Assembly: GCA_049643885.1 (NCBI GenBank)
Contig: JBARQV010000010.1
Span: 758 to 64,757 of the forward strand
From: Candidatus Omnitrophota bacterium
Lineage (GTDB): Bacteria; Omnitrophota; Gorgyraeia; Tantalellales; Tantalellaceae
DNA length: 64,000 nt
Reading direction: 5' to 3'
Below the pieces are notes generated by a model. The model ran no database searches, was not told the origin of the DNA, and saw only the letters and a list, made by a program, of their open reading frames with translations. Every line of letters begins with the position of its first letter. Within the stretch, counting starts at the first letter, position 1. This document shows positions 13,906 through 63,363 of this stretch, one piece after another. The position numbers were made by a program, and so were the translations under genes.

Positions 13906-13920
13906 GAATTTCCCTTTTCT

Positions 13921-14000
13921 GTCATCCCGGGGGAGACCCGGGATGACATACAAATATTACTTGATCCCGGACATTCGCCTTCGGCGAATTCCGGGATGAC
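13921..14000. repeat. GTCATCCCGG hairpin-repeat cluster (two units) in the rny-ymdB intergenic region
   Basis: gtcatcccggg-ggaga-cccgggatgac and gatcccggacattcgccttcggcgaattccgggatgac. The second unit is near-identical to 32033-32070. Confidence 0.75.
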
Positions 14001-31939: not shown

Positions 31940-32032
31940 CTCTTTTCGCCCCTATGTTATTAATAAAATTTACTCTCTGCGGTGTGAATATTGTAACAAC
32001 TGCCGATTAAAAAAGCAATATGCTTATTATTT

Positions 32033-32135
32033 GGTCCCGGATATTCGCCTTCGGCGAATTCCGGGATGACATTCTTTTATTCCCGGGCTCGTCCGGGATG
32101 ACATATTTTTATTGTTTTCTCGTCCGGGATGACAT
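32033..32135. repeat. GTCATCCCGG hairpin-repeat cluster (3-4 units) in the ndk-rsmI intergenic region
   Basis: ggtcccggatattcgccttcggcgaattccgggatgac is near-identical to 13963-14000. It is followed by tcccgggctcgtccgggatgacatatttttatt and a second cgtccgggatgacatatttt unit. Confidence 0.75.
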
Positions 32136-32848: not shown

Positions 32849-34705
32849 TTACTCTACCGTTACTGATTTTGCAAGATTTCTCGGCTGGTCGATGTCATAT
32901 CCGAAATCCGCCGCGACATAATAAGCCAGAAGCTGCAAGGGAATGACCACAAGGAGCGGCGAAAAGACCTCCGGCAGCCGGGGGATCTCGATAATGTGGT
33001 TGACATTGCTTTCCCGCACTTTTTCATCGCCCTCTGAAACAATAGCGATGATTATTCCGCTCCGCGCCTTTATCTCCTGGACATTGGAAAGCATTTTCTC
33101 GTAAGTGTCGGATTGTGTGGCTATGCACACGACCCAAGGGTTCTCGTCGATCAGAGCGATCGGTCCATGCTTCATCTCCCCGGCGGGGTAGCCTTCCGCG
33201 CTGATGTAAGAGATCTCTTTCAGTTTTAATGCTCCTTCCAGGGCGTTGGGGTAGTTTATGTTCCTGGCCAGGTAGAGAAAACAGCTTTTATTGCTGCGTG
33301 CCAGGTAATATTCATGGAAATCCTCGGCATGTTTTGATATCTGGTTCCTTTTGGAGTGGTACTGTTTCAGGAGTTTGTCCATCAGGGCCGGCGTCTTTTT
33401 GAGTTCCCTGAGGAACCATTTGCGGTCCAGGGGAAACGTTCTCTTCAGGGCGGCAAGGTAAAACGTAAAAAGGTACAATACGGCCAACTGCGCCGTATAT
33501 GCCTTTGTCGAAGCTACGGCTATTTCCGGACCGGCGTGCGTGTAGATAACCCCGTCGGCTTCCCTGGCTATGGAGCTGGCCAGGACATTGCAGATAGCCA
33601 AGACCTTGGCCTGCCGCTCGCGGGCTTGTCGCAAAGCGGCCAGGGTATCGGCCGTCTCGCCGGACTGTGATATTACAATAACCAGGGTGTCTTTGCCGAC
33701 AAGAGGATCACGGTAACGGAATTCACTCGAGGTGTCGACCCATACCGGAACGCGTGCATACTTTTCTATCAGGTACTTGCCAATCATCCCCGCGTGGTAC
33801 GCCGTTCCGCAGGCCACGATAACGACCCTTTTGATGCTCTTCAGCTTTGTCTTGTTGATGGCAAGCTCTTCAAAGACAACTTCATCCCCTTTTATCCTCT
33901 CCTTGAAGATCCCCCTGAGGACTTCCGGCTGCTCGAAGATCTCTTTCAGCATAAAATGTTTATATCCCATTTTCTCGGCCTGGGAAATGTCCCATTTCAC
34001 CAGGACCGGTTTTCTCCTGACCTTCCTGCCCCTGGAATCGCTTATTGAATAATCTTTCTCGGAGATATCCGCTATTTCTCCGTTTTCCAGGAAGATCACT
34101 TTTTTGGTATGCTCGAGAACGGCAGGGACATCGCTGGCCAGAAAATTTTCCCCTTCGCCCAGACCCACGATCAGGGGGCTGTCCTTCCTGGCTCCTATTA
34201 TCCTTCCCGGTTCTCCTTTATGAACGACGGCGATCGCGTAAGACCCCTTTAACTTCTTCGCTGCCCTCTTGACTGCGTCAAACAGATCGCCCCTGTAAAA
34301 CTCGGCGATCAAGTGGGCTATTACTTCGGTATCGGTCTCCGACCGAAAGACATACCCCGCTTCCCGGAGTTCTCTTTTGATCTCCTGATAATTTTCAATG
34401 ATCCCGTTATGGACTACCGCGATCTGTTCCCGCGGATCGATATGAGGGTGTGCGTTCACGTCGTTGGGGGCTCCATGAGTAGCCCACCTTGTGTGTCCTA
34501 TGCCGGATGTCCCTTTTACGGGATGGTCATTGAGATCATCCGCGAGCACGGAAAGTTTGCCCTGCTTCTTTCTGATATGGATGCTGTCTCCCTTCAAGAC
34601 CGCGATACCCGCAGAATCATACCCGCGGTACTCAAGGCGGGAGAGTCCCTTGAGCAGGATGCCTGTGGCCTCTTTTTTCCCAGTGTATCCTATTATCCCG
34701 CACAT
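32849..34705 (-). CDS. glmS: Glutamine--fructose-6-phosphate aminotransferase
   Basis: MCGIIGY N-terminal nucleophile amidase, two SIS domains and the C-terminal VTVE end. 618 aa. Confidence 0.93.
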   Translation of the reverse strand: MCGIIGYTGKKEATGILLKGLSRLEYRGYDSAGIAVLKGDSIHIRKKQGKLSVLADDLNDHPVKGTSGIGHTRWATHGAPNDVNAHPHIDPREQIAVVHNGIIENYQEIKRELREAGYVFRSETDTEVIAHLIAEFYRGDLFDAVKRAAKKLKGSYAIAVVHKGEPGRIIGARKDSPLIVGLGEGENFLASDVPAVLEHTKKVIFLENGEIADISEKDYSISDSRGRKVRRKPVLVKWDISQAEKMGYKHFMLKEIFEQPEVLRGIFKERIKGDEVVFEELAINKTKLKSIKRVVIVACGTAYHAGMIGKYLIEKYARVPVWVDTSSEFRYRDPLVGKDTLVIVISQSGETADTLAALRQARERQAKVLAICNVLASSIAREADGVIYTHAGPEIAVASTKAYTAQLAVLYLFTFYLAALKRTFPLDRKWFLRELKKTPALMDKLLKQYHSKRNQISKHAEDFHEYYLARSNKSCFLYLARNINYPNALEGALKLKEISYISAEGYPAGEMKHGPIALIDENPWVVCIATQSDTYEKMLSNVQEIKARSGIIIAIVSEGDEKVRESNVNHIIEIPRLPEVFSPLLVVIPLQLLAYYVAADFGYDIDQPRNLAKSVTVE

Positions 34706-34707
34706 CT

Positions 34708-35238
34708 TTATTCTTCCTTGTGCATCCGGTTAAGAAGGTTTATGATATCGGTCCTGGTGCTGCGACCGACCAGAGAAGCCAGGTAGAAAAGGACGGAGAA
34801 CTGCCAGCACTCCTCCGGCCCTATTATGAGCGCGGTCGATACGTTTTCTTCTCTTTCCAGTTGTCTCTTATGCTTTTCCACGCCCTTTGCCAAACTCGTT
34901 TCTTCCAGATCCAAACACTCGACGCTGTTGTTGTATTTAAGGGACGGGAATCTTATCCCCCTCATCAGAAAAAGCATTTGGACGCTGTCGCCTCCTATCT
35001 CCATATCCTCGCGGAAATCGAATCCCTCGAACTGCGGCATATCCTCGGGCAGCACGATCAAAGGTTTTTCAACGATCACTTTCCCCTTGCGGGCTACGGT
35101 GTGCCCCTCGTTTACGCTGGACTCGGCGAGAAATATGTAAGGCACTGCCGTGGACACGAAAGTGGAAAGCCCCTTGACCCGCCCCCTTACAACTTCTGTT
35201 TTTTCCTGGGCTTTGTCCCAGAACTGTTCAATATCCAT
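34708..35238 (-). CDS. Hypothetical protein (176 aa, no recognised family)
   Basis: Clean ORF abutting the glmS start (3-nt gap), soluble with an acidic composition. I cannot assign a family from sequence alone. Confidence 0.45.
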   Translation of the reverse strand: MDIEQFWDKAQEKTEVVRGRVKGLSTFVSTAVPYIFLAESSVNEGHTVARKGKVIVEKPLIVLPEDMPQFEGFDFREDMEIGGDSVQMLFLMRGIRFPSLKYNNSVECLDLEETSLAKGVEKHKRQLEREENVSTALIIGPEECWQFSVLFYLASLVGRSTRTDIINLLNRMHKEE

Positions 35239-35310
35239 TTTCTCCTTCTAAGAACATTTAGCGGGTAGCATATACTATCCGACACACGCTACCCGCTACC
35301 CGTTAAATAA

Positions 35311-35388
35311 TGGCGTCCCCACGGGGATTCGAACCCCGGTCGTCAGAATGAAAATCTGATGTCCTAGGCCAGACTAGACGATGGGGAC
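35311..35388 (-). tRNA. tRNA-Glu (anticodon UUC)
   Basis: 78-nt reverse-strand tRNA, near-identical in body to the tRNA-Glu(CUC) at 566-643. Anticodon loop ttTTCat, CCA end. Confidence 0.85.
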
Positions 35389-62315: not shown

Positions 62316-62352
62316 CAGGGACGTCCGATTCCCCCAGCGAGGAAATCGGACT
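62316..62352. repeat. 37-nt hairpin motif copy 2
   Basis: cagggacgtccgattcccccagcgaggaaatcggact with a perfect 8-bp stem gtccgatt/aatcggac. 33/37 identical to 144-180. Lies 21 nt after the atpK stop. Confidence 0.5.
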
Positions 62353-62450
62353 ATGTCATCCCGGGCGAGGCCGTAGGCCGAGACCCGGGATCAAGTAATA
62401 TTATTATGTGGTCCCCTCTTCCGCGGGGATGACATATTTTTATTCCCGAC
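62353..62450. repeat. GTCATCCCGG hairpin-repeat cluster downstream of atpK
   Basis: gtcatcccgggcgaggccgtaggccgagacccgggat, then tcccctcttccgcggggatgacatatttttattcccg. Shares the GGGATGACATATTTTTATT end with 32088-32111. Confidence 0.7.
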
Positions 62451-62587: not shown

Positions 62588-62899
62588 CTATTGAAATTCG
62601 GGCCTTCGGCTGACATCTATCGGAATGATGTCACCTTCGGCCCCTCGCCCTGCGGGCTCGGGCTCAAACCGCCGAATTTCTTTAAGGGGGAACCGGCTTG
62701 GTTCCCCCTTAATATTCCCTCTCCTTCATATGAATTTATTCTTATTTTTGTTATGTTTGGACGAGTCTCAGGCAGCTTTCACGCCCTTCAAAAGTTATTA
62801 AAATACCTAAAATTTGGAAATGGGCCCCTTGGATTTTATGGTTTTTGCGGGAAAATGACAATAGCTTAGCTATGATTAACATATGGAGGCATGGCAACT

Positions 62900-62936
62900 G
62901 TTCGAGCCCCGTCCGCCCCGCCATTCTGCTTTACCC
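62900..62936. repeat. Left arm of 37-bp inverted repeat: inverted copy of the tRNA-Asp 3' end plus 13 nt of flank
   Basis: gttcgagccccgtccgccccgccattctgctttaccc is the reverse complement of 63273-63309 with one mismatch. Confidence 0.75.
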
Positions 62937-62940
62937 TATT

Positions 62941-63183
62941 CTAGATAAGCCTTTTCTTCAAAAAAGCAAACCCTGAACCTTGCTTCAAGTATTCTTCAAA
63001 ACTTTTAGCTTTCTTCTTATCCTTAAATGTAATAAAAGTTTGCAACTCCCAAGGCCCATATTTACTAGAGTAGTGTGACTTGAAATCGTTATGTTCTTTT
63101 AGGCGGTTTTCGAGATTCTCAGTAAAACCTATATAACATCGTTCTGGATACTTTTTACTGATGAGAATATACACGATAAACAT
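62941..63183 (-). CDS. GIY-YIG nuclease family protein (small stand-alone, about 80 aa)
   Basis: MFIVYILISKKYPERCYIGFTENLENRLKEHN carries the GIY-YIG signature (VYIL...YIGFT...R..EH.N). Confidence 0.8.
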   Translation of the reverse strand: MFIVYILISKKYPERCYIGFTENLENRLKEHNDFKSHYSSKYGPWELQTFITFKDKKKAKSFEEYLKQGSGFAFLKKRLI

Positions 63184-63272
63184 GCGGTAATTATAGCACG
63201 AGTTTTGCTTTTTTGAAGAATCGAAACTTGTAGGAATTCCCGCGAAACCCTACCACTCGTTTACGAGTAGAA

Positions 63273-63309
63273 GGGTGAAGCAGAATGGCGGGGCGGACGG
63301 GGCTCGAAC
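63273..63309. repeat. Right arm of 37-bp inverted repeat (tRNA-Asp 3' end plus downstream flank)
   Basis: Overlaps tRNA-Asp positions 63286-63309 and 13 nt beyond its 3' end. Confidence 0.75.
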
Positions 63310-63363
63310 CCGCGACCTTCGGATCGACAGTCCGACGTTCTAAACCAACTGAACTACCGCCCC
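63286..63363 (-). tRNA. tRNA-Asp (anticodon GUC)
   Basis: 78-nt reverse-strand tRNA ggggcggtagttcagttggtttagaacgtcggactGTCgatccga... with CCA end. Confidence 0.85.

Follow-up and report, generated by a model that had tools for sequence, protein, structure and literature searches.

Why should a stand-alone nuclease gene lie between two inverted copies of a transfer RNA (tRNA) end? Small stand-alone GIY-YIG genes are among the commonest unexplained open reading frames (ORFs) in bacterial genomes. The case considered here comes from a 64,000-nt stretch of a Candidatus Omnitrophota bacterium genome (contig JBARQV010000010.1 of assembly GCA_049643885.1; the window throughout), in which an 80-aa GIY-YIG nuclease gene stands beside tRNA-Asp, between the arms of an inverted repeat one of which is the 3' end of that tRNA. 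The explanation we favour, with moderate confidence, is a mobile cassette directed at tRNA ends: an 80-aa Slx1-like GIY-YIG gene and a set of hairpin modules, placed immediately 3' of a tRNA or transfer-messenger RNA (tmRNA) gene, with an inverted copy of the target that would have been made by fold-back synthesis. The coordinates of the features are collected in Table 1, and loci from other assemblies are denoted by L numbers.

The inverted repeat measures 38 nt, its arms being 97% complementary and 334 nt apart. It had been described in an earlier note on this DNA as a 37-nt repeat made of 24 nt of tRNA and 13 nt of flank with one mismatch; repeat and mismatch are real, and the size is corrected here to 38 nt, with 14 nt beyond the tRNA (63272-63285 in the right arm). 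The sole mismatch (62932 T versus 63277 G) falls in this 14-nt part, and the tRNA part is perfect (24/24). A search allowing up to three mismatches returned these two copies only in the 64 kb, against a chance expectation of 0 (100 shuffles). The window structure is reproduced in full, with a single nucleotide polymorphism, in L001/L179 (GCA_049645405.1), and in an independent contig, L180 (GCA_049644805.1), the left arm is joined to the 3' part of the GIY-YIG gene as it is in the window. Because these two assemblies reproduce the structure in whole or in part, the repeat is not an assembly artefact. Nested within it is a second inverted repeat of 17 nt, missing from the first listing, whose upstream arm matches the C-terminal coding region of many homologues by BLAST. 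The nested pair recurs in L008 (17 nt) and L126 (19 nt) and so is a subfamily feature. When the region is folded as single-stranded DNA (DNA parameters), both stems form, with an energy of -87.7 kcal/mol and z = -9.6 relative to shuffles. The possibility that the left arm belongs to a second, degenerate tRNA-Asp was rejected: ARAGORN and Rfam returned nothing there, and the 60 nt upstream contain no acceptor or D-arm sequence.

The 14 nt adjoining the tRNA had been taken for genuine flanking sequence of tRNA-Asp. This proved wrong, as the same 14 nt also follow tRNA-Ser and tmRNA and are absent from an empty tRNA-Asp site. They are the conserved cassette terminus, TTCTGCTTC... (A5), at the start of the cassette leader, because the same sequence trails different RNA genes and the empty site lacks it. 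The A5 motif CCATTCTGCTT was found in all 15 of the loci fetched up to that point. Behind tRNA-Asp (L014), tRNA-Ser (L002, L096) and tmRNA (L023), the CCA end is followed directly by a leader of the form TTCTGCTTCGC-hairpin-GCTTCGCAGGAATTG-GCGAAGCAGAATG-TCCCTGCGAAGC-hairpin-GCGAAGCAGGACA, and then by the gene. The leader is better conserved than the gene: between L014 (Asp) and L096 (Ser), identity reaches 93% in the leader, 79% in the ORF and 63% in the tRNA. A known RNA family in the leader was rejected, the Rfam searches (E-value mode, E <= 0.1-1; window segment and 13 related loci) having returned tRNA and tmRNA only, plus chance-level matches to RAGATH-25 and STnc410.

The empty site was found in the relatives L186-L189. 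There, V-ATPase subunit K (93% identical to that of the window) is followed by tRNA-Val(+) and tRNA-Asp(+), the latter 96% identical to the window tRNA-Asp and identical over its last 25 nt, and the CCA end leads directly into an ordinary terminator (TAAAAAGCTGGCT...AGCTGGCTTTTTT). This tRNA-Val/tRNA-Asp site has no GIY-YIG gene, no TTCTGCTT and no second arm. The comparison of tRNA-Asp loci across relatives that had been proposed therefore gives a clear division, with the site filled in the window, L014 and L015 and empty of both cassette and second arm in L186-L189. Since the polymorphism lies at a syntenic tRNA-Val/tRNA-Asp pair, the cassette is an insertion. The other eight tRNAs of the window have ordinary flanks, and the 64 kb contain no further CCATTCTGCTT-type site or GIY-YIG copy.

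The link to tRNA and tmRNA ends extends to the family as a whole. The protein served to fetch 160 further loci, 80 of them genomic and 80 metagenomic, with hosts in Omnitrophota, Elusimicrobia, Verrucomicrobia and many Patescibacteria. The non-redundant loci that reach far enough upstream number 119; in 88 of them a tRNA or tmRNA gene lies on the same strand no more than 450 nt upstream of the GIY-YIG gene, and in 0 on the opposite strand, the background density being 0.038 tRNA/tmRNA genes per 450 bp. These upstream genes comprise 15 tRNA identities and tmRNA. Most of the other loci, with no adjacent tRNA or tmRNA, have tRNA-end-like fragments instead. The suggestion in the earlier note of a miniature mobile unit targeting tRNA-Asp was essentially right, as shown by the empty tRNA-Asp site in a relative, and too narrow, as shown by the range of upstream genes. 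In several genomes the cassette sits between a tRNA and housekeeping genes such as glmU, with no island there. Horizontal transfer of GIY-YIG genes from Patescibacteria has been noted (PMC12455944). In the literature on GIY-YIG genes, tRNA/tmRNA ends, UPF0213/COG2827 and the relevant phyla we found no description of the cassette; the family is widespread and apparently undescribed.

The cassettes are built from two hairpin modules. Module A, which follows the tRNA end, has the form X-TTC-GC..hairpin..GC-TTC-X', and module B the form Y-GAA-GC..hairpin..GC-GAA-Y'; A and B are one ~50-nt unit in opposite orientations, and between them lies A', the exact complement of A5. A pattern scan detected 89 B and 90 A modules, concentrated beside the GIY-YIG gene. 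The heptamer GCGNAGC, an unusually stable DNA mini-hairpin (PMC13037366), is 13-fold enriched at the modules. Dispersed copies resembling repetitive extragenic palindromes (REP) or miniature inverted-repeat transposable elements (MITEs) were sought by a strict scan of the window and all locus flanks and rejected: modules occur almost only within 300 nt upstream of GIY-YIG genes.

An exact inverted repeat spanning the junction of RNA gene and cassette (5-32 nt long, with 5 nt or more of it in the trailer) was present in 96 of 99 tRNA/tmRNA-linked loci, and in 84 of these it runs into the tRNA. The two arms covary. The first 9 nt occur in 38 variants, and the complement of a locus's own variant lies downstream in 50/99 loci, versus 7.4% for the variants of other loci. 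Two layouts were distinguished. In type ii, which covers most loci, A' is found 50-90 nt downstream and B precedes the gene, the arms being adjacent upstream of the gene. In type i (about 12 loci: the window, L018-L020, L025, L104, L110, L115, L133, L134, L136, L140), the gene lies between A and A'. Judged by this arrangement, the 38-nt repeat of the window is the A5/A' pair of the family in its type-i layout.

Complete type-i copies have the order T / A5-hairpin A-A3 - GIY - A' - partial inverted copy of T - B / direct copy of T (10-16 nt) / host flank, where T is the tRNA end. Clean examples stand behind tRNA-Ser (L134, L136, L140, with a clean 16-nt direct repeat each) and behind tRNA-Arg (L104, L099). 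Across the family, 19/95 loci have, beyond the gene, a direct copy of the tRNA end measuring 9-23 nt, versus 2/746 controls. The window copy has no right-end hairpin (module B) and no direct tRNA-end copy within 250 nt, and its module A is degenerate, with both GCGNAGC motifs mutated; this module may also provide the tRNA with a new terminator in place of its old one. The window copy has kept an intact gene and promoter. It is probably one-ended and no longer mobile.

The inverted tRNA-end copy beside A' is 24 nt long in the window, whereas tRNA-adjacent relatives have 0-7 nt. In L126, L008/L118 and L109, which are flanked by tRNA-end fragments, the inverted copies beside A' measure 10-12 nt and match tRNA-Ser, not tRNA-Asp. 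The same loci share the window promoter motif TCTTCAAAAAAGCA...TGcTATAAT. Because relatives with the same promoter carry inverted copies matching a different tRNA, the long inverted target copy is a subfamily trait, remade at each tRNA. The earlier idea of a homing-type insertion that duplicated its target is thereby borne out in part, with direct tRNA-end copies frequent among relatives and inverted copies recurring in one subfamily.

The 80-aa GIY-YIG gene reported between the arms was confirmed. The protein matches Pfam PF01541 over residues 2-70 (E = 6.4e-14, 52.4 bits, cut-off 22.6). Alignment with 21 homologues revealed 24 invariant columns, and the gene is full length, because the homologues are all 80-83 aa. 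Residues Y5, Y17-I-G19, R27, E30/H31/N32 and E63 show little or no variation among 22 homologues; their catalytic roles are assigned by analogy with I-TevI, UvrC and Slx1. An AlphaFold model of the protein (pLDDT, the predicted local distance difference test, 90.8) has the topology E-E-H-H-E-H-H, that is, the alpha/beta arrangement of the GIY-YIG fold with a three-stranded sheet flanked by helices. The best Foldseek matches were HIGLE (7wme) and Slx1 (6sei, 6seh), with probability 1.00, a template-modelling (TM) score of about 0.7 and about 30% identity, and the protein-family profile matches UPF0213 (1zg2) and SLX1. HIGLE and Slx1 are branched-DNA nucleases, and the protein resembles these structure-specific enzymes in profile and predicted fold. 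It ends at residue 80 with the nuclease domain only: a C-terminal RING/PHD-type zinc finger and a DNA-binding domain are both absent. With TIGR01453, the model for group I intron endonucleases, the score is 16.7 bits, far short of the 56.05 cut-off. By predicted function we regard it as an Slx1-type core and not as an Slx1 orthologue. The GIY-YIG mRNA is predicted to be leaderless or nearly so, and the layout TATAAT-N6-8-ATG recurs in many relatives.

Table 1. Features of the cassette locus (positions in the window; T, last 24 nt of tRNA-Asp; A5, first 14 nt of the cassette leader; A', complement of A5; rc(T), inverted T)
Feature	Position	Strand	Evidence or remark
tRNA-Asp(GTC), CCA encoded	63286..63363	-	ARAGORN; Rfam tRNA 71.7 bits; 96% identity to L186 tRNA-Asp
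Segment T, last 24 nt of tRNA-Asp, part of right arm	63286-63309	-	ARAGORN/Rfam tRNA placement
Right arm T.A5: 24-nt tRNA 3' end, then first 14 nt of cassette leader, TTCTGCTTCACCCT	63272..63309	-	Repeat search
Module A, left-end hairpin: TTCTGC-TTC-ACCCT..hairpin..AGGGT-TTC-GCGGGAA	63233..63285	-	+ strand 81% identical to L014 module B
Inner inverted repeat, upstream arm: inverted copy of C-terminal coding sequence, overlaps -35 of GIY promoter	63204..63220		17 nt, 100%
GIY promoter TTCAAA-16 nt-TGcTATAAT, ends 6 nt before ATG	63190..63217	-	Promoter scan, 10/12 matches, extended -10
GIY-YIG nuclease gene, 80 aa, full length, family-invariant residues all present	62941..63183	-	Pfam PF01541; homologue alignment
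Inner inverted repeat, downstream arm: inside ORF, codes FAFLKK	62954..62970		17 nt, 100%
Left arm; gene sense strand reads A'.rc(T), complement of first 14 nt of cassette, then inverted last 24 nt of tRNA-Asp	62900..62937	+	Repeat search; homologous A' segment in 96 of 99 relatives
AT-rich 205-nt spacer, no homologue in relatives	62695..62899		Homology to relative's tRNA-Val/tRNA-Asp spacer stops at 62694

How the cassette reached its present order in the window can be traced by comparison. The block of tRNA-Asp and cassette is inverted with respect to L014 and L186, where tRNA-Asp is on the + strand in the ancestral order tRNA-Val(+)/tRNA-Asp(+), and one inversion of the block [tRNA-Asp ... 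A'.rc(T)] produces the window order exactly. We do not favour the alternative that the left arm is a remnant of the ancestral tRNA-Asp(+), because a single inversion of the block yields the observed order without an extra event; the 5' two-thirds of the tRNA are absent there. Neither the AT-rich spacer nor the region to the right of the tRNA showed homology to any relative. Next after tRNA-Asp in L186 come a 176-aa gene and glmS, whose window homologues lie within 33210-35388, ~27 kb off on the minus strand, beside tRNA-Glu(TTC) (35311-35388). This displacement indicates a large rearrangement whose two ends fall at tRNA genes. A dispersed palindromic repeat (GTCATCCCGGG...CCCGGGATGAC) occupies 62316-62448, between the V-ATPase K gene and tRNA-Val, with related copies at 144-180, 13920-14000 and 32025-32113. 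The same-strain contigs of other assemblies (L181-L185) end at 62335-62416, inside this repeat.

Further observations were made at the edges of the cassettes. Type-ii genes behind different tRNAs share motifs 3' of the stop codon, (T)GCCA(G)TTTTTGAGTGAACCCTTCCGACGAGG and a hairpin GTCCACACTAATTGTGGAC-GCGAACCCTAGAG (L014 2744-2810, L096 731-810, L033, L035, L101, L132, L158), which may mark the right boundary of the type-ii unit. The genes just 3' of the cassette vary among otherwise identical loci (L002-L007, L097, L098, L008), and at these loci the cassette edge therefore adjoins a variable island. Its genes are often of the restriction-modification or defence type (N6/N4 and EcoRI-type methylases, NotI, DUF2971, Fic). 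Module A is tandemly amplified in L025, with four copies at 2290-2500. Nested arrays (L025, L022, L031, L037, L098 1-210) contain a short tRNA-end fragment, TCTCCGCCA, between two sets of modules, and arrays or nested copies were seen among L025, L031, L098 and L109. Runs of N and contig ends coincide with module arrays, where assembly was disrupted.

The transposition chemistry that we infer from these features would begin with the minimal nuclease, which would recognise DNA structure (the hairpins or a cruciform at the junction) in preference to a long sequence, and would in this way move or maintain the cassette. Host repair or replication would complete the movement, and has to be invoked because a GIY-YIG hydrolase alone cannot join DNA. 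The inverted target copy could arise by fold-back synthesis, A' pairing with A5 and its 3' end being extended by copying of the adjacent tRNA end; this might take place during insertion, or afterwards through a quasipalindrome template switch. Fold-back is favoured because the inverted copy is contiguous with the junction, varies in length and matches whichever tRNA is adjacent, and because the window repeat has its mismatch in the older A5/A' part and none in the tRNA part. A bolder proposal is an autonomous prokaryotic mobile-element class of a new kind, with the 80-aa Slx1-like nuclease as its only protein and hairpin ends rich in GCGNAGC. Its target tRNA/tmRNA 3' ends would be chosen by base pairing of A' and the inverted copy, and this guide would be rewritten by fold-back at each insertion; targeting would be guided by nucleic acid and dependent on structure. 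We consider this stronger version unlikely.

Several points weigh against a mobile, fold-back-copied cassette, the dependence on host joining functions being one of them. All the data come from metagenome-assembled genomes, and the case for mobility is built on sequence comparison. A clear direct repeat is present in only about 20% of loci, and its length of 9-23 nt is a misfit with a fixed staggered cut. In the type-ii majority the gene lies outside the A...B pair, which blurs the limits of the mobile unit there. Complementarity extends only 2-3 nt (CA/CCA) into the tRNA in most loci, and the control with other tRNA ends often gives 2-3 nt as well, which leaves roughly a dozen loci to support templated copying. 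The counts of G-T and A-C mismatches in the stems (B, 43 GT/52 AC; A, 14 GT/41 AC), made to tell RNA from DNA structure, are confounded by bulges and shared ancestry and do not discriminate. Finally, the window copy, with its mutated module A and missing right end, says little about the active form.

These points make the alternatives worth weighing. The modules and the A5/A' stem might act as RNA, folding in the 3' trailer of the tRNA or in the GIY-YIG transcript and controlling in cis tRNA 3' processing, termination, or the stability and translation of the GIY-YIG mRNA; in a variant, the 38-nt stem, or a GIY-YIG 3' untranslated region antisense to pre-tRNA-Asp, would be the functional entity. 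Stem covariation over the 38 sequence variants and a leader conserved above the ORF speak for such a role, as does the folded strand, far more stable than shuffles when computed with DNA parameters. The short T-run that ends module A could stand in for the displaced tRNA terminator, and in L018 and L020, where the gene lies between the arms, the ORF begins right after A3 with AGGAA as a possible ribosome-binding site, which implies co-transcription with the tRNA. However, the strong promoter of the window gene, 6 nt upstream of the ATG, is downstream of module A and leaves A5 outside the mRNA, and in many Patescibacteria loci a terminator (hairpin plus T-run) separates A from A'; both argue against A5 and A' acting within a single mRNA. 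The opposite orientation of A and B puts the stable GAA/GAA form on opposite strands, which fits symmetric DNA ends better than a single transcript, and the direct tRNA-end repeats, like the filled/empty polymorphism, belong to the DNA level. Rfam gave no match, and a 38-bp duplex that sequestered both T arm and acceptor of tRNA-Asp, for which the 64 kb contain a single gene, would be harmful. Taken jointly, the two RNA-level versions seem to us quite unlikely. An integrase-based origin, in which a miniature att-flanked element is moved in trans by tyrosine integrases, or an island edge has left a remnant, would make the GIY-YIG gene cargo, the direct repeats attL/attR and the inverted copy an accident. 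It draws on the status of tRNA/tmRNA 3' ends as classic integrase targets, on the 9-23-nt direct repeats of relatives, on a phage-type integrase ~750 nt upstream of the L008 cassette and on the variable restriction-modification and defence genes after the cassette in L002-L007 and L097/L098. Yet integrases are missing from the surroundings of the window copy and of most loci, and in the window the repeat is inverted, with no direct copy within 250 nt. The modules A, A' and B, the junction-spanning repeat and the recurrent inverted tRNA-end copies are left unexplained, and the cassettes between a tRNA and housekeeping genes (glmU) in several genomes have no island around them. We judge this origin distinctly improbable.

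Closer to the favoured account, and partly overlapping with its explanation of how the extension arose, is a one-off inverted duplication by a replication template switch in a decaying, immobile cassette, which would leave a functionless scar beside an older 14-bp inverted repeat. The perfect tRNA part next to a mismatched older part agrees with it, and so do the missing module B and direct repeat, the mutated GCGNAGC motifs and the reach of just 0-7 nt into the tRNA in tRNA-adjacent relatives. Against a single accident stand the 10-12-nt inverted copies that recur beside a different tRNA type in the same promoter subfamily (L126, L008/L118, L109), which speak for a regular process, and the intact gene, promoter and invariant residues; we think a mere scar improbable, though marginally less so than an integrase-made element. 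The earlier note had also considered an invertible segment, in which the 38-bp arms would be recombination sites flipping the 334-bp GIY-YIG segment. Near-perfect inverted arms do surround promoter and gene, and low-frequency RecA-dependent flipping is possible and would keep the tRNA intact either way. But no invertase or tyrosine recombinase gene was found within about 5 kb, the neighbours being V-ATPase subunits, tRNA-Val, an SDF transporter, CorA and HisKA. The window, GCA_049645405.1 and GCA_049644805.1 all have one orientation (assembly consensus). In most relatives the homologous arms fail to bracket the gene, lying side by side upstream of it, and flipping would have no obvious regulatory effect, as the gene carries its own promoter. 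An inversion switch is accordingly very improbable.

The proposed mobile cassette has features in common with several known systems. The free-standing GIY-YIG homing genes of phages, the Seg genes of T4, including SegB in a tRNA gene cluster (PMC13096335), are likewise stand-alone nuclease genes, inserted between other genes beside tRNA genes, with presence/absence among close relatives and a probable spread by DNA breakage and repair, and L186-L189 (empty) versus the window, L014 and L015 (filled) display just such a polymorphism of the I-TevI/Seg type. Seg and I-TevI enzymes, however, have 200+ aa with a C-terminal DNA-binding domain, whereas the cassette protein is an 80-aa catalytic domain alone, and Seg genes lack the conserved hairpin end-modules, junction-spanning inverted repeat and target duplications of the cassette. 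Closest by sequence profile and predicted fold are Slx1, HIGLE and UPF0213 (YhbQ-like) proteins, with a conserved catalytic core; their substrates are branched or hairpin DNAs and not long specific sequences, a preference in keeping with a cassette made up of hairpins. Slx1 also carries a zinc finger at its C-terminus and works together with Slx4; neither is present here, and the literature searched on UPF0213 gives no link to tRNA ends or flanking repeat modules.

The REP elements and bacterial interspersed mosaic elements (BIMEs) with their RAYT genes, and the IS200/IS605 family, also have a small gene between inversely oriented, short hairpin-forming repeats, and the complementarity of an internal cassette segment to the flank at the insertion point resembles the pairing of guide and cleavage site in IS608. 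These systems use HUH Y1 transposases, which cut and rejoin DNA, whereas the cassette encodes a GIY-YIG hydrolase alone. Its modules, unlike REP/BIME, are confined to the cassette and not dispersed in the genome, and its target is a tRNA/tmRNA 3' end, not a tetranucleotide. Elements targeted to tRNA/tmRNA genes, namely tyrosine-integrase islands and casposons (PMC4046053), share with it the gene-preserving insertion at the 3' end and, in many relatives, direct tRNA-end repeats at the far boundary. The cassette differs in having no integrase or Cas1, a size of ~0.4-0.6 kb, an extra inverted target copy and conserved hairpin end-modules. When set against terminal-inverted-repeat transposons and MITEs, relatives have the inverted ~50-nt A/B copies and, in 19/95 loci, 9-23-nt direct repeats; the repeat length is not fixed, the window has neither B nor a direct repeat, and no known transposase family is encoded. 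We rate the element as a free-standing GIY-YIG mobile cassette that fails a defining feature of each of its nearest precedents: phage homing genes, REP/RAYT with IS200/IS605, and tRNA-targeted elements.

Taken together, the window repeat belongs to a cassette that was inserted and is probably crippled; it is not a second tRNA gene, and very probably not a regulatory switch. The locus gave an explicit architecture for one large GIY-YIG family: a position after tRNA or tmRNA genes, inverted hairpin ends, a junction repeat, and target copies in both direct and inverted orientation. Should the cassette prove autonomously mobile, it would rank among the smallest self-mobilising DNA elements known and would be the first in prokaryotes to employ a GIY-YIG nuclease so, and the apparent base pairing with the target, if true, would be of interest for targeting tools. 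In Omnitrophota and Patescibacteria, where it is frequent, the family marks tRNA-proximal hot spots beside variable defence genes and breaks metagenome assemblies.

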